Part shown: piece after piece, positions 6,393 through 35,100 of the stretch
Position numbering within the stretch: position 1 is the first letter of the stretch
Layout of the letters: every line of letters begins with the position of its first letter
Source: an archaeon
GTDB taxonomy: Archaea > Aenigmatarchaeota > Aenigmatarchaeia > GW2011-AR5
NCBI GenBank assembly: GCA_035289125.1
Contig: DATDXW010000064.1
Coordinates: 1 to 41,211 of the forward strand
DNA: 41,211 bases
Reading direction: 5' to 3'
Notes under the pieces: model-generated
What the model was told of the DNA's origin: nothing
Database searches by the model: none
What the model saw: the letters and a program-made list of their open reading frames with translations, nothing else
Made by a program: the position numbers and the translations under genes

Positions 6393-6737
6393 TCATCTAC
6401 TCCAAAGAAAGCGAAGTGACATGTCATCCCTTACGAAATAGAAGAGTAGAAGTCGCACTGCTTGCACACGCCAATCCGGGAGATACGCACGGGGAATGTG
6501 TAGGGCTTTCGCGAGCTTTTGAACTTGCCGGGCGTTTTGGTGCAATACCGATTGACCGTGCTTGCTTGTTCTTCCGGGAGATGCCGAACCTGACGGGCGA
6601 ATCTCTATGTCAGCGTTCCCGACAAATTCCGAGGTATGTTCGTTGTGATTGAATATCCGGATTATACTCTTCGGAGAGAAGGAAATCGTGTAACTGTTGA
6701 TATAAATGCCGAAACTCCGGTGGAAATAATTTCGCAA
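6393..6737 (-). pseudogene. possible decayed small gene with coding-like signal spread over three frames
   Basis: From ATG at 6740: MKYILAKLFPPEFRHLYQQLHDFLLSEEYNPDIQSQRTYLGICRER*. A second frame gives ...EFVGNADIEIRP.... A third gives RFARQVRHLPEEQASTVNRYCTKTPGKFKSSRKPYTFPVRISRIGVCKQCDFYSSIS* (stop at 6431-6433). No single frame gives a convincing protein. Confidence 0.25.
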
Positions 6738-6791
6738 GAATATATTTCATAATTTATTTTCGTCTTTTAGTATTATGATTCTAAAGTACCA

Positions 6792-7754
6792 CTAGGCTTT
6801 CCTATAAATCTCTACACGAGCTTCATCTAATGTAAAAAGGCTCCTTCCCACAATGCTATAACATAAAGTTGCGGGCGCATTCTCAAATGTGCTATTAGTT
6901 AATACTGGATCGTCGGTTGGTTCAAGCCCATAGTGTCTCAAACATTCGCTTAATGGAACCTCGTCTCCTTCAGGAATTACTGTGATATAAGAAAATTCGT
7001 CTTTTAATCTAACTGGAAGTCTGATTCTGCTGTTGCTTATATAAGCTTTTATTCCAGATTTTCTGGCATTTACTGATGAAATAGCAAGCCTGCCATCTCT
7101 GTTTAAACTTGCAGCTAACTGTTGGAATTGCCTTGCCAAATCCCCCTCAACATAATCAAAAATATTGTTCATGCTCAGCAAATCCACTCCAGAAACTGAT
7201 AATAAATCGAACACATTGGCCGTTTGTATGTCCAATCTTTCAAGCCTATTTCTCATAGTGTCGTACAAGCGCCGTTCTAAATAACCTAGATTACTAATGC
7301 TCCCGTTATCACCTCTTAATTGTTCCGGCAATTCAAAAAACTGGTTTAAACGGGTCCTGTCCCCTTGTGGAAGCTTTTCCAATATTCGATGGTTCAACCT
7401 GTGGGCATCAGATTTGATTTGTTCTTGTCTTTCCGATATTACATAGCCCGTATCAGACGCATGAAGATCTAAAATATGGGAAAGCAATGCAGCATAATCA
7501 AGCGGGTCATCCAATTGTCTGATTGCCTCCTTTTTCCAGATCCCCACGGCAGTTGCAATAGGATTTACATCAACCGCTATCACACTCTCCACATCGTCTC
7601 GTGCCAGAGAATGTATCGCAGGATCTATTTCTCCGGCATGTAAAACGTTTCTTGCATCGGGATGCACACGAGAAAGATAGCCAGATCTAAAGTTATTTAT
7701 GGTATAAGGCACTTTGTCATGTACAAAGTCAATGCCTTTTAGAGTTTTGTGCAT
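6792..7754 (-). CDS. DUF3419/BtaA-like SAM-dependent methyltransferase-fold protein, AT-rich islet
   Basis: NVLHAGEIDPAIHSLARDDVESVIAVDVNPIATAVGIWKKEAIRQL and VDLLSMNNIFDYVEGDLARQFQQLAASLNRDGRLAISS match the layout of that family. Composition is clearly AT-richer than glyS and pheS. Confidence 0.6.
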   Translation of the reverse strand: MHKTLKGIDFVHDKVPYTINNFRSGYLSRVHPDARNVLHAGEIDPAIHSLARDDVESVIAVDVNPIATAVGIWKKEAIRQLDDPLDYAALLSHILDLHASDTGYVISERQEQIKSDAHRLNHRILEKLPQGDRTRLNQFFELPEQLRGDNGSISNLGYLERRLYDTMRNRLERLDIQTANVFDLLSVSGVDLLSMNNIFDYVEGDLARQFQQLAASLNRDGRLAISSVNARKSGIKAYISNSRIRLPVRLKDEFSYITVIPEGDEVPLSECLRHYGLEPTDDPVLTNSTFENAPATLCYSIVGRSLFTLDEARVEIYRKA

Positions 7755-8080
7755 GCTTTAATTAAGCGATTCCATGTATATAAACATTTCGCTACTATAG
7801 AATAGTGAAAATTGAAAAATTTAAATGTAAGTAACTACTATATAGTGACTATATCAGTGGATTCGGAGTTGATGATAACAAACTGCCGGTAATAGGTTGA
7901 TTAATGCTCATAGCCAGTTTTTACAAGAATAATTAATAGAAACTCAACAGTCACTATTCTTTACTAGAAGCGTTAAGGAAGCTAATTCTTGTAGAATAGG
8001 ATATATTATTTAAAGAAATCCGAAATGGCGTTGATGACCGCCTGTGAACCAATAAAAGCGGAGAAAACAAGAGGATAACG

Positions 8081-11940: not shown

Positions 11941-12330
11941 TCATCCGAGCCGTATAGATGTCACCGTGTCCCTTACGCCGCGTATAGCCCGTATCCTGTC
12001 CATGGACTTGTTCAGGCTCTCAATGGAAATCGCCTTTATTATCGCCACGATATCGTAGCTCCCGGATATTTCGTAAACGTCGCTTGATAGTCCCTTAAGC
12101 GATGCTATTATGCGCTTTGCCCTCTTCGCATCCACGCTTATCATGACAGCAGCTTCAAAGGGGGCGCGGAAATCCACGGTGAATCTCCGTATATGCCCGC
12201 TTTCCATAAGCCTCGCCACCCTGTTCCTTATCGTGCCTTCCGTTACGCCAAGAGCCTCTGCTATGTCTACGAAGCTTTCCCTTGAGTCTTTCTCAAGCTT
12301 GCGCATTATTTTAAGGTCAATTTCGTCCAT
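11941..12330 (-). CDS. Lrp/AsnC-family transcriptional regulator
   Basis: N-terminal HTH (DEIDLKIMRKLEKDSRESFVDIAEALGVTEGTIRNRVARLMESGHI) and a C-terminal RAM-like domain. Confidence 0.9.
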   Translation of the reverse strand: MDEIDLKIMRKLEKDSRESFVDIAEALGVTEGTIRNRVARLMESGHIRRFTVDFRAPFEAAVMISVDAKRAKRIIASLKGLSSDVYEISGSYDIVAIIKAISIESLNKSMDRIRAIRGVRDTVTSIRLG

Positions 12331-22472: not shown

Positions 22473-22516
22473 GCTATCGCAGACAGATTTTAATCCTTTT
22501 CCGAAATAGCTGTTTA

Positions 22517-22957
22517 ATGGATTACGATAATACGCTGCTTGCGCTTTACGGGACGGCGCTGGTCGTGATAATAATACTGCTTTCGGATTTATGGGCAATG
22601 GCAGGGCTCTTTATTTTCGTTCTGATGATATCGCTTCTGCAAAAGATTCACCTGGAAGACCGTATAGAGGAAGAAATCGCGGGCAGAAAGAGAAACGCGG
22701 AACTGCTGCTGAGCAGAGTAGATGCCATCGTGAAGCGCATAGAAGACGCCCGCTATGAAATAAGCAAGTCGTTCTTCGCGGTGGAAAGCAGACTTGAAGA
22801 TGTGCGGAGCGACTCGCTGAAAGAAATGGACATGAACTACCGTGAGCTGGCGAGAAAGATAGCCGAACTTGAAGCGCGGCTTGACACGGCGAAGAGAACG
22901 TACTCCGCGGCGTTGGCGTCGTTTGATGAAAGGATACAGGCGGCTGAGGACGAGTAG
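22517..22957 (+). CDS. membrane-anchored coiled-coil protein
   Basis: An internal ATG gives MDYDNTLLALYGTALVVIIILLSDLWAMAGLFIFVLMISLL, then a long heptad-like Glu/Arg/Leu-rich region. The upstream part of ORF 22349..22957 is not protein-like. Confidence 0.6.
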   Translation: MDYDNTLLALYGTALVVIIILLSDLWAMAGLFIFVLMISLLQKIHLEDRIEEEIAGRKRNAELLLSRVDAIVKRIEDARYEISKSFFAVESRLEDVRSDSLKEMDMNYRELARKIAELEARLDTAKRTYSAALASFDERIQAAEDE

Positions 22958-23030
22958 CGCCCATGAGGAGACAGTAATAAAATATGTGCCCATTAAACGA
23001 ATATTTATTCGCGTAATAGTTGTTAGTGAA

Positions 23031-23044
23031 ATTGATTTTGGGCG
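23031..23044 (+). repeat. left copy of the 14-bp perfect inverted repeat TTGATTTTGGGCGC bracketing the HIT-like gene
   Basis: Its exact reverse complement occurs at 23512-23525. Confidence 0.9.
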
Positions 23045-23087
23045 CTAAGAGGAATATTTTATATACTATTATGATTCTATTAATTGT

Positions 23088-23510
23088 ATGAAGAAAAAAG
23101 ATTGTGTCTTTTGCAATTTTAAAGACAAGGAAGTTCTATTTTATGAAGACCGTTTATGCTATGCAGTCATAAGTAAAAATCCTATAAACAAATATCATGT
23201 ATTAATTATTCCTAAAGAGCACTACCAAGAGTTTGTAGAACTTCCTGACGAACTCGCTTCGCACATCTTTCTTGTTGCCAAAAAGATTTCTAAAGCTGTT
23301 AGGAAAGCATGCAACCCTGATGCAATATCACATCTTTTTGATGATGATACTTCGAAGAGCGGTTATAATCTGGTTGCACATTACAAGTTTCATATCATTC
23401 CTCGATTCAAGAAAGATATGCCTCTGATTGACTGGAGTCCATTAAGAACAGATGAAAGTAGCGAAGCTCGTTCTAAATATGCAAAAGACATTAAGAAATA
23501 TTTGAAGTGA
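23088..23510 (+). CDS. HIT-superfamily-like protein with an atypical H-x-K-x-H motif
   Basis: CVFCNF...NKYHVLIIPKEH...NLVAHYKFHIIPR. Strongly AT-rich. Own TATA-like TTTTATATAC at about 23057-23066. Confidence 0.8.
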   Translation: MKKKDCVFCNFKDKEVLFYEDRLCYAVISKNPINKYHVLIIPKEHYQEFVELPDELASHIFLVAKKISKAVRKACNPDAISHLFDDDTSKSGYNLVAHYKFHIIPRFKKDMPLIDWSPLRTDESSEARSKYAKDIKKYLK

Positions 23511-23511
23511 C

Positions 23512-23525
23512 GCGCCCAAAATCAA
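23512..23525 (-). repeat. right (inverted) copy of TTGATTTTGGGCGC
   Basis: The plus strand reads GCGCCCAAAATCAA and begins 2 nt after the HIT-like stop codon. Confidence 0.9.
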
Positions 23526-23579
23526 CTCAAGCCACGCTGCGCTCTCGTTCCGCTTCGCTCCACTCGGGTCACTTAACAA

Positions 23580-23659
23580 GGGATATACGGTTCGGGGCTC
23601 GGCTCGCCCCTCACCCAAATTTTTCTTCCGCTACGCTCCAGAAAAACTTCGTATATCCC
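23580..23659 (+). repeat. 80-nt element able to form a three-way junction
   Basis: Closing inverted repeat GGGATATACG (23580-23589) / CGTATATCCC (23650-23659). Inner hairpins GGGGC-TCGGCTC-GCCCC (23594-23610) and TTTTTCT-N13-AGAAAAA (23620-23646). Confidence 0.7.
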
Positions 23660-23723
23660 TGACGTTATATTCAATTGTCGGCAGAAATATTACGAGGGGG
23701 TCGGCTCGCTCTAATTTGGTTTT

Positions 23724-23984
23724 TTAATCTCCCTTACTTTGAAGAGCATAAGGTTCAAACATTAGAATGTAAGTATCTTCTTCGCTTGTGGGACAATGCT
23801 CTATTCTATAATCGCCAACGCGGACTCTGAATATTTTCTCTTTTCTGTTGACTACTCTCTTGACATCACTTGGGAAAGGGTCATGCGTTAGCTTTTCTAT
23901 TTCTTCAACAATTCGCTTTGCGATTTGTTTTTCAGTCTTCTTTAGAAATTTTCTGGCTTGAGAAGAAAATTCAACAACAAACAT
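23724..23984 (-). CDS. RelE/ParE-superfamily toxin-like protein
   Basis: From the internal ATG: MFVVEFSSQARKFLKKTEKQIAKRIVEEIEKLTHDPFPSDVKRV...IFRVRVGDYRI...TYILMFEP, which matches the archaeal RelE pattern (…R.R.GDYR…). Confidence 0.72.
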   Translation of the reverse strand: MFVVEFSSQARKFLKKTEKQIAKRIVEEIEKLTHDPFPSDVKRVVNRKEKIFRVRVGDYRIEHCPTSEEDTYILMFEPYALQSKGD

Positions 23985-23985
23985 T

Positions 23986-24189
23986 TCATAACCCCAACTC
24001 CTTTTTGAGTTCGGAAAGTGGGTTCGTTTTTCCTTCTTTGAGTTCCCGCATACTTTGTTCAAATCGCCTACTTCCCTCTGTAGTCATTATCGTATCTGGA
24101 TCAAACATGTGCTTTTTAATGAATACGACTTCTTTCCTTAATTCCTTTAGCTCATCGTATATTCTTTAAACGGTAGTTATTTCTGCCAT
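23986..24189 (-). pseudogene. cognate antitoxin-like gene with an in-frame TAA at codon 8 (24166-24168)
   Basis: MAEITTV*RIYDELKELRKEVVFIKKHMFDPDTIMTTEGSRRFEQSMRELKEGKTNPLSELKKELGL*. Its stop lies 1 nt before the toxin ATG. The next in-frame ATG would leave only 40 aa. Confidence 0.55.
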
Positions 24190-24392
24190 AATACCTCTTT
24201 TGCGGTATCTTTATTTAAGTCTAACGGCGGCTTAATGACGGATTTCTGAACTCTTCGCTTCCTCGGAAGCTTGTTTTTGGCAATACTTCAATTTAGCCTT
24301 CAGACATTTTACGCCAAAAAGGACTTAACACGAATGTTACGGCTTACTTCGTGCGCCCATGTCCGCCTTTGGCGAACATCGCAAAATCCGAT

Positions 24393-24421
24393 ACGTTATA
24401 TGACATTGGGGTTCGGGCTCT
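24393..24421 (+). repeat. cassette-boundary motif copy (ACGTTATATGACATTGGGGTTCGGGCTCT)
   Basis: 25/29 identical to 24613-24641. Related to 23662-23712. Confidence 0.8.
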
Positions 24422-24612
24422 AACTGACTGTTAATTATCTACAAAAATAGAATAAACCTCTTATCGTTTAGCGACAAAGTGATTTTTTCCCACATCTACC
24501 GCGTTTTTTTCGGCCATCTTCTTTTTGAATGCTGCCGGGCGATCTATGATTTCTCCAGTTTCACTTACAAAGATATCACCCAAATTCCTGCTGGAACTTC
24601 TCAAAGTCTCGG

Positions 24613-24641
24613 ACGTTGTATGACGTCGGGTTTCGGGCTCT
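24613..24641 (+). repeat. cassette-boundary motif copy (ACGTTGTATGACGTCGGGTTTCGGGCTCT)
   Basis: Contains GTCGGGTTTCGGGC (24625-24638). An inverted copy (13/14) lies at 25205-25218. Confidence 0.8.
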
Positions 24642-24647
24642 CCTCCT

Positions 24648-25133
24648 TTACCAGAAAAAGTGGCATTGAGTATAGCCGGGTCTCCATCGATAAGAACCGA
24701 AACTTCTGTGTCCTTGAGAGGGGGTTACTTTCAAATAATCTCTTTGAGCCATAATACTTTTCCACTCTCTAGCTATTTCTTCCAGTGAAGAAATAGTATA
24801 ACCTATATGTTCAGGAATCGGAGGTATCCCTTCTCTATGTGGAAAATCTGTAACACATATCTGGGTACTCCCAGCACCACAACCTACAAGACTTTTAAGA
24901 TACTGGTTGGGAACGTAGAGCAAACCTGATTTGCCAGCCGATACGAATCGTCTACCCGGGTGATACGCCTCTATATGCGGCATTACTTCAGCACCCAGAT
25001 GATAGTATTCTGCGGGATCTCTAGGGATTCTAACTTCTATTACATCAGAAATATTTTCCAGTCCATCTAATAATTTCCCTAATACCTCATCCCAAGCATG
25101 TGTTCTACGTTGCTCTTCTGTCAACGTGGTCAT
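24648..25133 (-). CDS. hypothetical protein, probably frameshifted (coding signal continues to 24461 in another frame)
   Basis: 161-codon ORF. Downstream of a C5 run (24720-24724), a second frame stays open for 87 more codons to TAA at 24461-24463. Confidence 0.55.
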   Translation of the reverse strand: MTTLTEEQRRTHAWDEVLGKLLDGLENISDVIEVRIPRDPAEYYHLGAEVMPHIEAYHPGRRFVSAGKSGLLYVPNQYLKSLVGCGAGSTQICVTDFPHREGIPPIPEHIGYTISSLEEIAREWKSIMAQRDYLKVTPSQGHRSFGSYRWRPGYTQCHFFW

Positions 25134-25204
25134 AATTTATCTCCATATCTTTCTTCTGCTTTTTGCTATTACTTCCATACATAAGTATTTAATAATTTTT
25201 CGGC

Positions 25205-25218
25205 GCCCGAAACCCAAC
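25205..25218 (-). repeat. inverted copy of the boundary motif (GTTGGGTTTCGGGC on the minus strand)
   Basis: The plus strand reads GCCCGAAACCCAAC inside the near-palindrome TTTCGGCGCCCGAAA. Confidence 0.8.
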
Positions 25219-25251
25219 GCTTCGCAATTACCTTTGTGATTGATAAGTATA

Positions 25252-25292
25252 GTAAACTGCGTAATTTGTGTGACATACATTACGCAGTTTAC
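25252..25292. repeat. 14-bp perfect inverted repeat GTAAACTGCGTAAT / ATTACGCAGTTTAC with a 13-nt spacer
   Basis: Arms at 25252-25265 and 25279-25292. Nearby are GTGACATA/TATGTCAC (25269-25276 / 25313-25320) and repeated CGCAGTT words. Confidence 0.85.
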
Positions 25293-25370
25293 ATATAGAC
25301 AACTGCTAATAATATGTCACCTAAGTTTCGCAGTTATCTATAATTGCTCTATCTCGACAATATTTCAAAT

Positions 25371-25545
25371 ATAGGATACGATGCATTCGCAGAATGCGGG
25401 CGTTAGTAAAGGAACGGAGAAAGACTTCCTACGCACGGTTCGGTTTTTGACGGTGCGGGTTGTAAAAGCATAATATGGGATACGATTCACGAATGAAATG
25501 AGTGAAGGGTATTGGCATACGACGCATTCGAAGAATGCGGGGTAT
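25371..25545 (+). repeat. three hairpin boxes (c0, c1, c2) plus a Q/P block upstream of the rpl1 TATA box
   Basis: c0 25371-25402 (GCATTC-GCA-GAATGC). Q/P block 25417-25468 (27/31 to 19366-19396). c1 25470-25512 (ATAC-GA-TTCAC...GTGAA-GG-GTAT). c2 25511-25545 (ATAC-GA-CGCATTC-GAA-GAATGCG-GG-GTAT). Confidence 0.8.
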
Positions 25546-25555
25546 ATTTATATAC
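25543..25555 (+). promoter_or_regulatory. TATA box (TATATTTATATAC) for the rpl1-rplP0-rpl12 unit
   Basis: About 65-75 nt upstream of the rpl1 ATG. The predicted leader carries a hairpin (25562-25592) and an AGGAGG Shine-Dalgarno element at 25604-25609. Confidence 0.45.
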
Positions 25556-25617
25556 TTTACGGCGATACGTAGTAAAGTCCGTATACTGTCGCGCTTCTGC
25601 GGCAGGAGGACGTTTGT

Positions 25618-26220
25618 ATGAAAGTGGAAGACGCGATAAAGGAGATACGAAGCCAGCCGAAGAGAAACTTCGCACAAGGCGTGGAACTTAACATAATACT
25701 CAAGAATATAGACCCAAAGAGGCCCGAGCAGCGCTTCAGCAAAGACGTGGTGCTGCCGCACGGCCGGGGAAAGGATGTGAAAGTAGGAATAATGTCCGAC
25801 AAAATACCGAATGCCATAACCAAGAGCGACCTGGAAAGCATGACAACCGACACCAAAAAGATGCGCGCCATGCTCAAAGATTATAGATATTTCCTCTGCG
25901 AACCGCCGCTCATGGTGACGGTCGGCAAGGTGCTTGGAAAATACCTCGGTCCCAAGGGAAGGATGCCCAAGCCCATCATGCCTACGATGTCCGTGGAAAA
26001 GATGATGGAGAGCTTCACGAAATCCGTTACGCTGCGGATGCAGGACTCCGTTTCTCTCAACGTGCCGGTGGGCACGGAAAGCATGGAAGATGCGAAGCTC
26101 GCAGACAACGTTAATGCCGTACTGAACGAGCTGAAGGCGATGCTGCCCAAGGGTGCCAACCAGATAAAGCGCGTCATACTGAAAACTACCATGGGCAAAC
26201 CGGTGATTATGGATGATTAA
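25618..26220 (+). CDS. rpl1: 50S ribosomal protein uL1
   Basis: KRNFAQGVELNIILKNIDPKRPEQRFSKDVVLPHGRGKDVKV...LGPKGRMPKP. Confidence 0.95.
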   Translation: MKVEDAIKEIRSQPKRNFAQGVELNIILKNIDPKRPEQRFSKDVVLPHGRGKDVKVGIMSDKIPNAITKSDLESMTTDTKKMRAMLKDYRYFLCEPPLMVTVGKVLGKYLGPKGRMPKPIMPTMSVEKMMESFTKSVTLRMQDSVSLNVPVGTESMEDAKLADNVNAVLNELKAMLPKGANQIKRVILKTTMGKPVIMDD

Positions 26221-27348: not shown

Positions 27349-27349
27349 A

Positions 27350-27370
27350 TTTTTTAATTTTTTTGTTTTC
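27350..27370 (+). terminator. oligo-T terminator-like tract after rpl12
   Basis: TTTTTTAATTTTTTTGTTTTC begins 2 nt after the TAA. Archaeal termination typically uses T runs. Confidence 0.5.
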
Positions 27371-27475
27371 AATTTTATTTGATTAGTTCTTACTTCGGGC
27401 TTTGTGTCGTGACTTTTGAGTGAGGGTGTGAAGTGTAAACTGGGCATTTTTATACATTAATACCCTGATAGTCTT

Positions 27476-27970
27476 ATGACTTTGAATGATACCTACACGC
27501 GACTCATTGAATTTCTTGACCAACATGGAGCGCATTATAAACTGATTGACCATCCGCCGGAGGGACGAACTGAAATTGTCAGCCCGATGCGCGGCAACAA
27601 AGTTTCACAAGCGGCAAAGTGTATTGTTATCATGGTGAAGATCGGAAAGAAAGTAACGAAGTATGTTTTGGGCGTTGTACCAGGCGATGCAAAAATAGAT
27701 TTGAACGCCGTTAAAGAATTGTTCGGTGGTACATACATCTCTTTTGCTACTCCAGAGATTGCAGAAAGACTGGCAGGCAGTGTTGCCGGTACTATTCTTC
27801 CGTTTTCCTTCAATCCCGAGATGGAATTAATCGCTGACCCGTCACTGTTGAAAAACGACGAAATCTATTTCAACGCCGCCCGATTGGACCATTCAATGGC
27901 ATTGAAAACGGATGACTATGTAGATTTGGCCAAGCCGCGTATTGAGCACATAGTGAAAGATTCCGAGTGA
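27476..27970 (+). CDS. YbaK/ProX-type aminoacyl-tRNA deacylase domain protein
   Basis: ...KVSQAAKCIVIMVK...YVLGVVPGDAKIDLNAVKELFG...SFATPEIAERLAGSVAGTILPFS.... Lies immediately upstream of alaS. Confidence 0.8.
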   Translation: MTLNDTYTRLIEFLDQHGAHYKLIDHPPEGRTEIVSPMRGNKVSQAAKCIVIMVKIGKKVTKYVLGVVPGDAKIDLNAVKELFGGTYISFATPEIAERLAGSVAGTILPFSFNPEMELIADPSLLKNDEIYFNAARLDHSMALKTDDYVDLAKPRIEHIVKDSE

Positions 27971-27976
27971 TACATC

Positions 27977-32199: not shown

Positions 32200-35100
32200 T
32201 GAACGTACGTAAAGTTCTGGTTATAGGAAGCGGTGCGATAAAAATCGGAGAAGCGGGTGAATTTGACTATTCGGGCGCACAGGCAATAAAGGCACTGAAG
32301 GAAGAAGGTATAGAAGTCGTGCTTGTCAACCCAAACATAGCGACTATACAGACAGATTCTAAATTCACGGACACGGTCTATTCGGTCCCGATAAAGCCTG
32401 CGTTCGTGGAGAAGGTGATAGAAAAGGAGAGACCGAACGGGATATTGCTGGGATTCGGCGGGCAGACCGCGCTTAATTGCGGGATAGAACTGTATGAAAG
32501 CGGCGTGCTGCGAAAGTATGGCGTGAAAGTTCTCGGCACGGGCATGGAGAGCATACGGAAAGCGAGCGACCGTGACTCATTCAGAACGCTAATGCTGGAA
32601 ATCGGCGTGCCGATACCGTTGAGTAAAAAAGCCACGGATGTCGAAGGAGCTCTAGCCGCGGCCAAAGAAATAGGATATCCCGTGATAGTGCGCGTAGCAT
32701 ACACGCTCGGCGGATACGGCTCGGGCATAGCTTACAACGATACAGAGCTCAGGGAGATATCATATCGTGGACTGTCTTACAGCAGAATAAGGCAGTTGCT
32801 GATAGAGGAGTATCTGGACGGGTGGAAGGAGATAGAATACGAAATAGTCCGCGACTGTGAAGACAACTGCATCATAATATGCAACATGGAAAACATGGAC
32901 CCCATGGGCGTCCATACCGGCGATTCCATAGTGGTCGCTCCCTCGCAGACGCTCAGCAATGGCGAATATCAGGCTATGCGTACCATGGCTTTCAAGGTGG
33001 CTCGCGCGCTTGACATCGTGGGCGAATGCAATATACAGTATGCCGTCGAGCCAAAAAGCGGCGCATTCAAAGTCATAGAAGTGAATTCGCGGCTTTCAAG
33101 AAGCTCAGCTCTTGCAAGCAAAGCCACGGGATATCCAATAGCCTACATAGCGGCGAAACTTTCGCTCGGGCATCCGTTGCGTGACTTAAAAAACAAAATA
33201 ACCGACACGACTGCGTTCTTTGAGCCTGCATTGGATTACATCGCAGTTAAGATACCGCGATGGGACTTCAGAAAGTTCAAAGGTATAGCCATGGCGCTCG
33301 GTCCGCAAATGAAATCCGTGGGAGAAGTCATGGCTCTCGGGAGGACGTTCGAAGAAGCCTTGCAGAAGGCCGTGAGGATGCTTGATACCGGCAGTGAGCT
33401 TACGTCGCTTGACTGCGCCGTGGATAAGGAGAAGCTGCGCATCCCGAATGAAAAAAGAATTTACCATATAGCCAACGCGCTTAGAACGGAGAGCGTTGAG
33501 CACGTGGCTTCCCTCACAAAAATAAGCCCGTGGTTCATATACAAAATCAAAAATATCACGGATGCGGAAAAGAACGCCTTGCTCGACAGGGAGAATCTCC
33601 GCAAGCTGAAGAGAATGGGGTTCTCCGATAAAAGGATAGCCTCGCTCACGGGCATGGGCGAGAGTGACGTCAGAAGCCTGCGCAAATCTTTCGGAATAAT
33701 ACCAGTCGTGAAGCAGATAGACACTACCGCGGCAGAGTGGGAAGCCAAGACGAACTATCTATATCTCACATACTGGGGCAGTGAAGACGACATTATCTTT
33801 GAGAAAAAGAAAAAAATCGCCGTGCTGGGCTCCGGATGTTACCGCATCGGCTCTTCCGTCGAGTTTGACTGGTGCTGCGTCAACATGGCATGGGCGATGA
33901 AAAAATACGCGGATGAAATAATAATGATAAATTATAACCCGGAGACCGTCTCCACTGATTATGATACGGTCGATAAACTTTACTTCGATGAATTGACGCT
34001 TGAACGGATACTGGATATAACAGACAAAGAAAATCCGGAGGGCGTCATAGTTTCCGTGGGCGGGCAGATACCTAACAATCTCGCGCTGCCGCTCGCCGAA
34101 CAGGGCGTGAAAATACTGGGAACGTCCGCGCAGAACATAGACAATGCCGAAGACCGCTCCAAATTCTCTTCGTTGCTTGACTGCATCGGCGTGAAACAGC
34201 CCGAATGGGCGATATTGAGCAGCATTGAAAGCGCCAAGGCATTCTCAGAGAAAGCGGGCTATCCCGTGCTTGTGCGCCCGTCTTACGTCCTGTCCGGCTC
34301 TGCGATGACTGTGATATTTGACGACGCGCAACTTGGCGCGTATATGGGTGGCATGAACGGGGAGAAAAACGTCACGATTTCCAAGTTCCTTACAAACGCA
34401 AAGGAAGTGGAGATAGACGGCGTGCGGGGCGAACGCGTCTACGTAGGCGCGATACTTGAGCATATAGAGAACGGCGGCGTGCACTCCGGGGATGCTACAA
34501 TGGTGATACCTACAGTGACGATAAGCGAAAAAACGAAAGATACGTTGAGAAGCATAGCCGTGAAAGTTGCGGACGCGCTGGATATACGCGGACCTTTCAA
34601 CATACAGTTCCTGGTGAAGGACGGTGACGCTTACGTCATAGAGTGTAACGTCCGCTCGTCCCGCAGCATGCCCTTCGTGTCGAAAGCAACGGGACGGAAT
34701 CTTATGGACATAGCGGCGCGCGCGATAATGAACGAACCCATGAGCGAAGAGTACGCCGAGCCTTCGCGGTATTGCGTCAAGTTCCCGCAATTCTCATTCA
34801 CCCGCATGGGCGCCGACCCGCTCACTGGCGTGGAAATGGTTTCCACGGGCGAAGTGGCGTGCTTCGGCGCCACGTTCGGCGAGGCGTTCATGAAAGCCGC
34901 CATTGCCGGCGACGTGAAGCTGCCGGGGGAGGATTCGGCTATATTCGTCACAGTCGGCGGGGACAAATCGCGGATAGAGGGGCCCATGCGAATGCTGTCG
35001 ACAAAGTTTAGGATTTACGCGACGGATACGACAGCTGATTTTCTGCGCAGCAAAGGGATAAAATGCACAACGCTTTACAAGGTGAACGAGGACAGGCAAC

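Follow-up and report, generated by a model that had tools for sequence, protein, structure and literature searches.

The window (the whole stretch of DNA analysed, 41,211 nucleotides) comes from a groundwater Aenigmatarchaeota archaeon, and an island of AT-rich genes in it adjoins the upstream side of the L1-operon promoter. The GC content of the island is 39.2%, compared with 51% in the 10 kb on each side. In the alignment with the closest genome, the sister genome L011 (91% amino acid identity in L11, about 87% at the nucleotide level), window positions 22959–25521 are missing, and the L1 promoter region of L011 lies within ~24 nt of the stop codon of the 146-aa gene. Absence from the sister genome supports the AT-rich accessory insert of the original prediction. 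Copies of a native site flank the island, and the whole of it probably arrived in one event at this short duplicated site. The L1-operon promoter, its insertion point, is partly triplicated. The features of the locus are the following:

22970–22986, plus strand: duplicated native site, left copy (GACAGTAATAAAATATG), where homology to L011 stops (alignment with L011 3520–3700)
22987–25355, no strand: whole inserted island, 2369 nt (~2.4 kb), missing from L011
23019–23028, plus: 5' core of the putative HIT cassette, GTTGTTAGTG in the window and GTTAAGTGA in L091 and L094; homology starts here, upstream flanks unrelated
23032–23045, plus: GC-rich motif, copy a (TTGATTTTGGGCGC), upstream of the HIT promoter (TATA box 23058–23065); 14/14 complementary to 23512–23525
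23088–23510, plus: HIT-family gene, 140 aa, 34% GC (Pfam PF01230, E 1.9e-17)
23512–23525, minus: motif copy b, exact complement of copy a, directly after the HIT stop codon
23571–23670, plus: candidate hairpin recombination site of the HIT cassette, 100 nt (ACTTAAC, A, 11-bp stem, two inner hairpins, return arm, GAC, GTTATAT)
23669–23707, plus: 39-nt module opening a 130-nt cassette fragment (23665–23794); 92% identical copy in L002 at 12213–12251
23724–23984, minus: ParE/RelE toxin gene (PF05016, E 4.7e-6); native 3' end replaced, homology to intact copies stops at 23795
23986–24190, minus: antitoxin gene with an in-frame TAA at 24167–24169 (codon 8); weak RelN-antitoxin match
24323–24401, plus: second hairpin site, ACTTAAC to GTTATAT; its complement GTTAAGTCC is the toxin–antitoxin module end
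24405–24420, plus: motif copy c (ATTGGGGTTCGGGCTC), without inverted partner, inside the 48-nt direct repeat copy 24374–24421
24461–24604, minus: 47-aa ORF or gene remnant; reading frame varies among strains, no family match
24562–24621, plus: third, degenerate site, CACTTAC to GTTGTAT; its 3' half is the second 48-nt repeat copy
24625–24640, plus: motif copy d (GTCGGGTTTCGGGCTC), just past the 3' end of the 161-aa gene
24648–25133, minus: 161-aa ORFan gene, no Pfam or NCBIfam match
25203–25218, minus: motif copy e (GCGCCCGAAACCCAAC), inverted relative to its partner, copy d; upstream of the 161-aa gene promoter; contains ACCCAAC/GTTGGGT
25245–25345, no strand: two tandem related hairpins closed by AAC...GTT (GTAAAC...GTTTAC and GACAAC...GTTATC)
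25356–25374, plus: duplicated native site, right copy (GACAATATTTCAAATATAG), which finds its match in L011 in the intergenic region upstream of the L1 promoter

Ten conspecific metagenome contigs carry the same block at 99% identity, and the cassette presence/absence variation among strains that had been envisaged was not seen among them. ORFs are altered in conspecific contigs by two indels, +G at 24634 and +C at 24681. For the 161-aa protein, a search of 5.8 billion clustered and 1.84 billion representative proteins returned just its own 96%-identical variant. For the tandem hairpins at the right end, the predicted folding energy is -27.4 kcal/mol, with a z of about -6 for either strand; near them, contig L006 departs from the window sequence at 25346, and 25354 is the last position covered by L003.

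Modules recur in unrelated contigs

The HIT and toxin–antitoxin genes were found as discrete modules in unrelated contigs, with their ends at GTTAAGT and ACTTAAC cores. HIT homologues reach at most 87% identity in other contigs; one, at 84%, sits inside an archaeal rpoA–L7Ae (PF01248)–KH-domain (NusA-like) operon, and those in Patescibacteria are 65–69% identical. The module as a whole (~650 nt) is 84% identical in L094 and L091, where the flanks are unrelated. Homology starts at TA|GTTAAGTGAAATTG in both of these contigs. The 5' end is common to three independent contexts within 1–3 nt, at the GTT core and upstream of the promoter. The homology ends at CCCT(G/A)ACGTTA, followed by GTTATAT in the window and GTTAGGC in L094.

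The toxin–antitoxin module is 93% identical in L096 and L097 from 24332 down to 23795 and is intact in both, bounded by GTTAAGTCC ... GGACTTAAC; in L097 it ends ACTTAAC-T-GTTATGC, without the hairpin. In the window, the RelE/ParE family match and the operon layout are present and both genes are damaged. The last ~23 residues of the toxin are replaced relative to the intact copy, and toxin homologues (84–85 aa) cover just 74–86% of the ORF. At the position of the antitoxin stop, L096 and L097 have CAG or CAA within an intact 67-aa gene. One cassette is truncated and fused to a fragment of another. The 39-nt module that opens the 130-nt fragment recurs in L002 beside a different gene, again just after GTT.

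In both module types, 9 bp at one end are complementary to the other end, and among them is a dinucleotide peculiar to the module: GA/TC in HIT (GTTAAGTGA versus TCACTTAAC in L094) and CC/GG in the toxin–antitoxin pair (GTTAAGTCC versus GGACTTAAC in L097). In four junction types, it is at GTT that homology breaks off. The exception is L109, in which HIT homology stops at ACTTAAC and not after the hairpin; the side of the crossover is therefore inconsistent.

The GC-rich motif was found at all five predicted positions, the first copy shifted by 1 nt, and the inverted copies bracketing the HIT gene (14/14) and the 161-aa gene (24624–24638 and 25205–25219, 14/15 complementary) are both present. 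When the block was shuffled 1000 times with dinucleotides preserved, 7 shuffles contained a perfect inverted repeat of at least 14 nt whose arms were separated by 100–700 nt (P ~0.007). The degenerate consensus of the motif gave three matches in the window against 1.3 expected, which is not significant, all of them in the block; within the 41 kb, the motif copies, the inverted pairs and the 48-nt repeat (24374–24421 and 24594–24641, 77% identical) are confined to it. Copy a is conserved in L091 and L094 and copy b in L091, L094 and L109, and in L095 a G-to-C change in copy a is compensated in the 3' copy. Among the other repeated words, ACGTT(A/G)TATGAC held in part: ACGTTRTATGAC is exact at 24393 and 24613, both inside the 48-nt repeat, and at 23662 only ACGTTATAT matches. 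The word GCGCCCATG occurs at 22957, as expected, and at 24353, and once more on the minus strand at 34805 (three copies against 0.38 expected), and CTTCGCT..CTCGG...ACTTAACA was recovered at both of its positions.

The role given to the GC-rich motif did not survive these comparisons. It had been taken as the module boundary, but homology runs past it by ~10 nt on the 5' side and 45–150 nt on the 3' side, up to the AAC/GTT cores. In the alignments it is an inverted repeat internal to each cassette, just inside these cores.

Hairpin sites and integron core tests

As single-stranded DNA, the HIT hairpin, which lies in a 3' UTR position and contains a T-run, has a predicted folding energy of -19.3 kcal/mol for the minus strand (z -4.1) and of -15.5 kcal/mol for the plus strand (z -2.9); G–T pairs account for the better fold of the minus strand. 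Comparison with L094 gave 31 consensus pairs, of which 6 show compensatory changes, and the hairpin beyond ACTTAAC was kept along with HIT in three contexts with structure-preserving changes. Conservation of structure over sequence was seen at this site alone, as the other two fold no better than shuffles: the second gave a weak fold (z -1.1 to -1.5) and the third (24562–24621) none that was significant. Both ends of the second site are homologous to the site beside the L096/L097 toxin–antitoxin module, and its centre is replaced.

The attC hairpins of integrons are imperfect, with L''/L' boxes, 57–141 nt long, and conserved in structure rather than sequence; in a complete integron the array further adjoins a Pc promoter, an attI site and the gene of an IntI tyrosine recombinase, which has an extra domain specific to IntI. 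The original prediction saw no fit of the motif to the GTTRRRY core; that nothing here fits that core is wrong for cores that it had overlooked. The inverse core ACTTAAC at 23571–23577 and 24323–24329 fits RYYYAAC, and GTTAGGC in L094 and the GTTAAGT module 5' ends fit GTTRRRY fully; the R' cores GTTATAT, GTTATAT and GTTGTAT fit it at 5–6 of 7 positions. RYYYAAC and GTTRRRY cores, with their conserved AAC/GTT triplets, flank the site, and the junction falls at G|TT of R', the cassette's own 5' end being complementary to its R''. The features by which the attC bottom strand is marked, extrahelical bases and a central spacer left unpaired, were not found in the HIT hairpin, whose 11-bp stem is perfect and is joined to the core stem by an internal loop of 1 nt versus 3 nt (A versus GAC).

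A home-made attC covariance model, of the kind that IntegronFinder uses, was built from attC-aadA7 and nine experimentally validated archaeal attCs (10 sites). It detected no site, whether in the block, in the window as a whole or in the related loci; its top hit (8.4 bits, E 7) lies outside the block. On the control plasmid R46 the model gave 57.8 and 41.1 bits for two attCs, of which the orfD attC (41 bits) is independent; it missed attC-oxa2 (8.3 bits), so its sensitivity is imperfect. By the CALIN definition (at least two model-called attC sites less than 4 kb apart, no integrase), this substitute model called no site. In a simple core-plus-stem scan sites were no commoner than chance, and one metagenome scan returned no further family members. 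No integrase or transposase domain was detected by Pfam among the ~34 window ORFs (small ORFs partly covered), as had been noted before, and no Phage_integrase or other recombinase in the related loci examined.

Proposed reading and its alternatives

Module recurrence, the cores, the 9-bp ends and the covarying hairpin match integron cassette logic, so that the cassette idea was largely right. Of the gene-cassette array first proposed, the discrete recurrent units (HIT and toxin–antitoxin) stand, whereas no site matches the canonical attC model; since the sites miss that model, the locus is cassette-like and not a standard integron array. Our preferred reading, with a probability of about one half, is a fossil, decaying island that was acquired horizontally and en bloc, and whose integron-like cassettes have non-canonical sites.

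Under this reading each cassette would consist of its own archaeal promoter and gene or genes, with a 5' end TTAAGT-NN and a complementary 3' end NN-ACTTAAC, and its 3' hairpin would end in (G/A)ACG, followed by TTR of the next unit. In an excised or single-stranded form the ends could pair, with the core stem, the hairpin and an outer GC-rich stem forming one long folded site, at which a site-specific recombinase, its gene lying elsewhere or in the donor alone, would cross over at G|TT as IntI does at attC. The GC-rich motif would be this outer stem, with one half directly inward of the 5' core and the other directly ahead of the 3' core, and each gene would consequently be bracketed by its own matching inverted pair. 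The insertion, the recurrence of modules, their boundaries, the covariation and the gene decay are observations; recombination at a folded site, the kind of recombinase and the arrival in one piece are inferred. Against this reading stand the single significant fold among three or four proposed sites and the occurrence of cassettes in both orientations with their own promoters, as well as the results of the covariance model and of the core-plus-stem scan, the missing extrahelical bases, the L109 breakpoint, the lack of an integrase in the window and related loci, the metagenome scan without further family members, and the invariance of the block in the ten contigs.

In this genome the array appears inactive: the window has no recombinase gene, the cassettes lie in both orientations, one is truncated and fused, the antitoxin has a stop, and gene ends show frameshift polymorphism. 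The island is probably a decaying, neutral relic; its insertion right at the L1-operon promoter may be an exception to neutrality. More broadly, DPANN archaea, possibly with Patescibacteria neighbours, might exchange genes through an unrecognised cassette system with long folded palindromic sites (a variable hairpin, a core stem of ACTTAAC/GTTAAGT and, outermost, a GC-rich stem particular to the cassette) that are invisible to current attC models, with own promoters, either orientation and a recombinase serving them; we regard this extension as doubtful. If these are real recombination sites, integron surveys would undercount cassette-borne gene flow in DPANN archaea, because they depend on the canonical attC model, and the HIT relatives in Patescibacteria bear on cross-domain exchange. 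The locus is an unusually clean case, as the cassettes share their contig with archaeal FtsZ, Spt5, L11, L1, L10 and P1 genes and the archaeal host is certain.

The failure of the canonical attC model, together with the lack of a recombinase and of strain-to-strain variation, could also reflect an ordinary horizontally transferred island without dedicated cassette machinery. Its flanks would then be promoter-upstream regions and structured 3' UTRs or terminators moved by generic recombination, and its inverted repeats regulatory or RNA-stability elements. The modules do have their own TATA boxes, and the hairpin lies where a 3' UTR would, with its T-run; archaeal terminators, however, are oligo-T runs rather than GC-rich hairpins. 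The compensatory changes fit RNA structure equally well, but the 5' GC-rich copy lies upstream of the TATA box and could not pair with the 3' copy within its own mRNA. The HIT 5' end shared by three contexts, at a GTT core upstream of the promoter, would likewise not be transcribed from that promoter, and the 9-bp complementary ends with their module-specific bases also argue against this explanation, which we find unlikely.

Perfect 9-bp inverted ends on both module types would also be expected of passenger genes in non-autonomous MITE-like transposons, with GTTAAGTNN...NNACTTAAC or the GC-rich pair as terminal inverted repeats, a transposase elsewhere, and the hairpins as preferred targets or unrelated spacers. 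The occurrence of both orientations, the L097 module that ends without a hairpin and the L109 homology that stops right after ACTTAAC agree with this. We nevertheless consider it improbable, as no target-site duplications flank the modules or the 9-bp GTTAAGTNN ends (in the window, L091, L094 and L097), the hairpin past ACTTAAC co-transfers with HIT in three contexts with structure-preserving changes, and no transposase is nearby apart from an unrelated IS200-like gene in L095. The MITE-bounded alternative of the original prediction is disfavoured by the same absence of duplications and by the position of the GC-rich repeats inside the conserved unit.

That the hairpins are ends or relics of IS200/IS605 (Y1 HUH transposase) single-strand transposons, or REP/PATE-like elements with genes trapped between them, is very unlikely. 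In its favour, folding is hairpin-dependent and strand-biased, and in L095 an IS200-like Y1_Tnp gene (PF01797, E 1.7e-14), the only Y1 transposase in the loci seen, lies directly upstream of a HIT homologue and takes the place of the module's 5' portion, within the TTGAT motif. Against it, the L095 hairpin (AGGGGACGCTCCCCT) is unrelated to those of the block, IS200/IS605 elements have similar subterminal hairpins at either end, oriented alike, whereas the modules have a local hairpin just on the 3' side, the motifs are not dispersed as REP elements are (none elsewhere in the 41-kb window), and no Rfam matches were obtained, IS605-associated RNAs included.

Comparison with known systems

Like MITEs and other elements bounded by terminal inverted repeats, the block has inverted repeats around short units with no transposase inside; unlike them, it shows no target-site duplications and no dispersed empty copies in the window, and conserved sequence, including the hairpin, passes the repeats. 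In Acinetobacter plasmids, pdif (Xer) sites are XerC/XerD sites of 28 bp in which a 6-bp spacer separates the 11-bp arms. Modules between them resemble those described here in being discrete units, often toxin–antitoxin pairs, between inverted copies of a short site, but the motif of the block is without such a dyad and the module boundaries lie outside the inverted repeats.

Sedentary chromosomal integrons of the Vibrio superintegron type contain RelE/ParE-type cassettes with their own promoter, opposite to their neighbours, and the toxin–antitoxin pair of the block shares family, own promoter and opposite orientation with these. In contrast to the Vibrio arrays, the array here is tiny and lacks an integrase, and both genes of the pair appear to be inactivated, which makes a stabilising role unlikely now.

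Integrons are known in archaea, mostly as arrays without an integrase, Aenigmatarchaeota included (Ghaly et al, 2022, PMC9668308). The block differs from them in several respects: its sites are undetected by the covariance model of validated attCs and have neither extrahelical bases nor a 5–6-nt unpaired central spacer; an extra 14–16-bp cassette-specific GC-rich stem lies outside the core boxes; the cassettes carry their own promoters, in both orientations, unlike those of typical integron arrays; and the array lies among clustered ribosomal-protein genes, with a duplicated native site and no attI at its flanks. As in most archaeal cases, no integrase lies beside the array. The block also resembles integron cassettes and CALINs (PMC9668308) in its small single-gene or toxin–antitoxin modules, with a cargo (a toxin–antitoxin pair and ORFans) typical of such arrays, in a 5' end TTRRRY (TTAAGT) complementary to the inverse core RYYYAAC (ACTTAAC) that opens the 3' hairpin site, in its G|TT junctions, in the conservation of structure above sequence, and in the presence of the same cassette in unrelated genomes.

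Insertion of the block upstream of the L1 operon

The window comes from an archaeal host, and the block is preceded by FtsZ, SecE, Spt5/NusG and L11 and followed by L1, L10, P1, a YbaK-like editing protein and AlaRS. Its GC content is 39.2%, versus 51% on either side. The nearest genome in the species-level collection was a groundwater Candidatus Aenigmatarchaeota MAG (L011, hereafter the sister genome; JACQIE010000095), with 91% amino acid identity in L11 and ~87% nucleotide identity over the flanks. In this genome no more than ~24 nt separate the stop codon of a 146-aa gene from the L1 promoter and leader, and window positions 22959-25521 have no counterpart in the alignment. The same alignment delimits the insertion, whose features are as follows:

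22970-22986, left copy of a duplicated native intergenic sequence (GACAGTAATAAAATATG)
22987-25355, inserted block (2369 nt)
23019-23028, 5' end of the HIT module (GTTGTTAGTG)
23032-23045 and 23512-23525, perfectly complementary motif copies (TTGATTTTGGGCGC) bracketing the HIT gene
23571-23670, hairpin of the HIT site
23669-23707, 39-nt module
24323-24401 and 24562-24621, two other candidate sites
24374-24421 and 24594-24641, 48-nt direct repeat (77% identical), holding the word ACGTTRTATGAC and two more motif copies
24624-24638 and 25205-25219, motif copies around the 161-aa gene (14/15 pairing)
25245-25345, double hairpin closing the island (z about -6 on both strands)
25356-25374, right copy of the duplicated native sequence (GACAATATTTCAAATATAG)

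Because native intergenic sequence is duplicated on both sides, the island looks like one integration at a short site rather than an array built up at attI. The double hairpin at its right end consists of two tandem, related, near-perfect hairpins, each closed by AAC...GTT. A conspecific contig (L006) departs from the window at 25346, directly past this structure, into unrelated GC-rich sequence, and contig L003 ends at 25354. We could not use the L006 tail as evidence of rearrangement, since it matches nothing in the window or the other loci. At the left duplicated junction, L006 and another conspecific contig (L002) carry a substitution cluster and a 4-nt deletion (22983-22986) within 22962-22987.

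The same block was found at ~99% identity in ten metagenome contigs from several groundwater samples, and it is therefore fixed in the species. Presence/absence variation of cassettes between strains, raised by the original prediction, was not seen in these contigs. SNPs and a small number of indels distinguish the strains in the block; the indels at 24634 and 24681 alter the reading frames at the 3' terminus of the 161-aa gene.

Several further observations concern the surroundings of the block. Just upstream of the L1-operon TATA box, a unit made of ATATRGGATACG and a GAAG-type hairpin is present in three copies (25368, 25472 and 25517; window 25368-25554) and in one copy in the sister genome; its stem is kept and differs by species (GCATTC/GAATGC in the window, CTCGC/GCGAG in the sister genome). 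The YbaK-like gene (27349-27976, 44.6% GC), located between P1/L12 and AlaRS, is not at this position in the sister genome. Contig L002 (11724-12381) matches the window without differences as far as 27652, beyond which identity falls to 74% inside this gene; at its end lies the island's 39-nt module, followed by a tRNA gene. Either recombination or a chimeric assembly involving a paralogue accounts for this contig. A further stretch of low GC (38-40%, window 6500-8000) surrounds a 320-aa minus-strand ORF (6792-7754) with a sub-threshold DUF3419 match only; no island motifs occur there. Of the profile for the catalytic C-terminal domain, the tRNA-intron endonuclease ORF (2124-2507) reaches only position 31 before it stops, and the gene may be split, frameshifted or continuing in another frame. 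Finally, a contig labelled as a bacterial Sulfurovum sp. MAG (L020, JAIVYC010000031) encodes a protein with 51% amino acid identity to the archaeal L11 query, and its DNA aligns with the ftsZ region of the window; it is probably mis-binned.

Module ends and the repeated motif

The HIT gene and its flanks recur in unrelated contexts.

Contexts of the HIT gene in related loci
L091: after a gene for a 179-aa membrane-like protein
L094: before a type I methylase
L109: beside VapBC
L092/L093: after DnaK
L095: beside an IS200-like gene

The module, 84% identical, is common to the window, L091 and L094 from GTTAAGTGAAATTG onward, directly after TA, and takes in promoter and gene, then the second motif copy, 45 conserved nt and ACTTAAC. 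The window and L094 also have an 86-nt hairpin in common, up to CCCT(G/A)ACGTTA, past which the window reads GTTATAT and L094 GTTAGGC. A toxin-antitoxin module extends from GTTAAGTCC to GGACTTAAC in the related locus L097. Both module types have a 5' end exactly complementary over 9 bp to the opening of the 3' site, including two module-specific bases. ACTTAAC fits RYYYAAC, and both GTTAAGT and GTTAGGC fit GTTRRRY. A third junction is the 39-nt module, preceded by GTT in two different contexts.

In the comparison with L109, the HIT breakpoint falls after ACTTAAC, and in L097 (955-975) two cores lie back to back without a hairpin (ACTTAAC-T-GTTATGC); both suggest that exchange can take place at either core. 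Abutting cores without a hairpin also occur in L094 (700-712), where CCTAAC directly followed by GTTAGG forms a perfect 12-nt palindrome. Both strands of every site give a possible reading, ACTTAAC...GTTRTAT on one and ATAYAAC...GTTAAGT on the other. The latter, minus-strand reading agrees with the conserved 5' portions of the sites and conflicts with the linkage of hairpin and HIT gene in three contexts; this linkage favours ACTTAAC...GTTRTAT. Cores of the Xer/dif or serine-recombinase type were rejected, as there is no 11-6-11 dyad and the palindrome is found in L094 only. In L095 (1193-1720), the HIT homologue is immediately preceded by an IS200-like Y1 transposase gene, which has a terminal hairpin (AGGGGACGCTCCCCT) and takes the place of the 5' end of the module, with the switch inside the motif's TTGAT.

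All repeats listed in the original prediction are present, at most 1-2 nt from where they had been placed. Of the dinucleotide-shuffled versions of the block, 0.7% contained a perfect inverted repeat of at least 14 nt with its arms at gene-size spacing, and the motifs are absent from the rest of the 41-kb window. Rfam, scanned at a permissive threshold, had no match in 22500-26000; the repeats belong to no known RNA family and are neither C/D-box nor IS-associated RNAs. One copy of the motif sits just inside the 5' core (GTTAAGT-GAA-ATTGATTTTGGGCGC), the other between the stop codon, which it directly follows, and the 3' core; the motif is kept along with the HIT module, with a matched change in both copies in L095. 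The proposal of cassettes is largely right, with the exception that the motif is an inner repeat and not the boundary, because conserved sequence runs past it on both sides. If the cassette ends were joined, the motif would supply a cassette-specific outer stem of 14-16 bp beyond the core stem and hairpin.

Cargo genes and the HIT hairpin

For the HIT protein (PF01230, E 1.9e-17), identities to homologues go up to 87%; one homologue, at 84%, is encoded within an archaeal rpoA-L7Ae(PF01248)-KH-domain (NusA-like) operon, whereas those in Patescibacteria are at 65-69%. The ParE/RelE toxin and its antitoxin are both damaged with respect to an intact, 93% identical copy in L096/L097: antitoxin codon 8 is TAA instead of CAA/CAG, and the toxin 3' end is replaced from 23795. 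As for the unknown protein predicted at 161 or 222 aa, the shorter form is an ORFan in a remote homology search; the longer reading requires a frameshift where strains differ by indels, and its extra 87 codons have no match; an Integrase_1 match (E 0.12) was dismissed as noise. In agreement with the original prediction, no recombinase domain was detected among the ~34 window ORFs scanned.

As single-stranded DNA, the HIT hairpin folds on both strands, at z -4.1 (minus) and z -2.9 (plus). The consensus fold of the window and L094 copies has 31 pairs, six of which are changed on both sides with pairing kept, and consists of a core stem of 4 bp (TAAC/GTTA), an internal loop with A opposite (G/A)AC, a stem of 10-11 bp and two inner hairpins. 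The two other candidate sites showed no significant fold, although they have cores and flanks in common with the HIT site, which fits a general decay of the region.

Relationship to integrons

Archaeal integrons are documented, mostly as arrays without integrase, and include Aenigmatarchaeota of another order (PMC9668308). Scanning for AAC...GTT cores with an adjacent 8-bp stem gave 6 matches in the window versus 5.5 in shuffles; the HIT hairpin is the sole match inside the block, and this criterion does not discriminate. The viral contigs scanned contained no match to two junction patterns, and one metagenome scan with CAYATAACGTATCGGAYTT returned only this locus, L096 and two chance matches, with no further family members or arrays. 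An apparent cluster of GTTAAGT/ACTTAAC in the Micrarchaeota locus L017, noticed in counts over all fetched loci, lies within coding sequence and is compositional.

We also built a covariance model from attC-aadA7 and nine archaeal attCs with experimental recombination (PMC9668308, Data S9), which reproduces the canonical features (R box, spacer, bulged L box). With this model attC-aadA1 reached 57.8 bits and the attC-orfD of plasmid R46, an independent site, 41.1 bits; it matched nothing in the block, window or related loci, with the limit that attC-oxa2 itself scores only 8.3 bits. Because of this result, because the sites, unlike canonical attCs, have neither extrahelical bases nor the canonical unpaired spacer, and because the cassettes, in contrast to typical integron arrays, have promoters of their own and occur in both orientations (HIT reads rightward, its site being downstream; toxin-antitoxin genes, remnant and 161-aa gene leftward), we do not file the block as a CALIN (attC cluster without integrase), which it resembles by its junctions and from which it departs in the sequence and structure that decide membership. 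The end logic of its modules is the same as that of integron gene cassettes, and the block is a real, non-chance feature; we place at roughly one in two the probability of our reading of it as a small, fixed, decaying island of integron-like cassettes with non-canonical sites.
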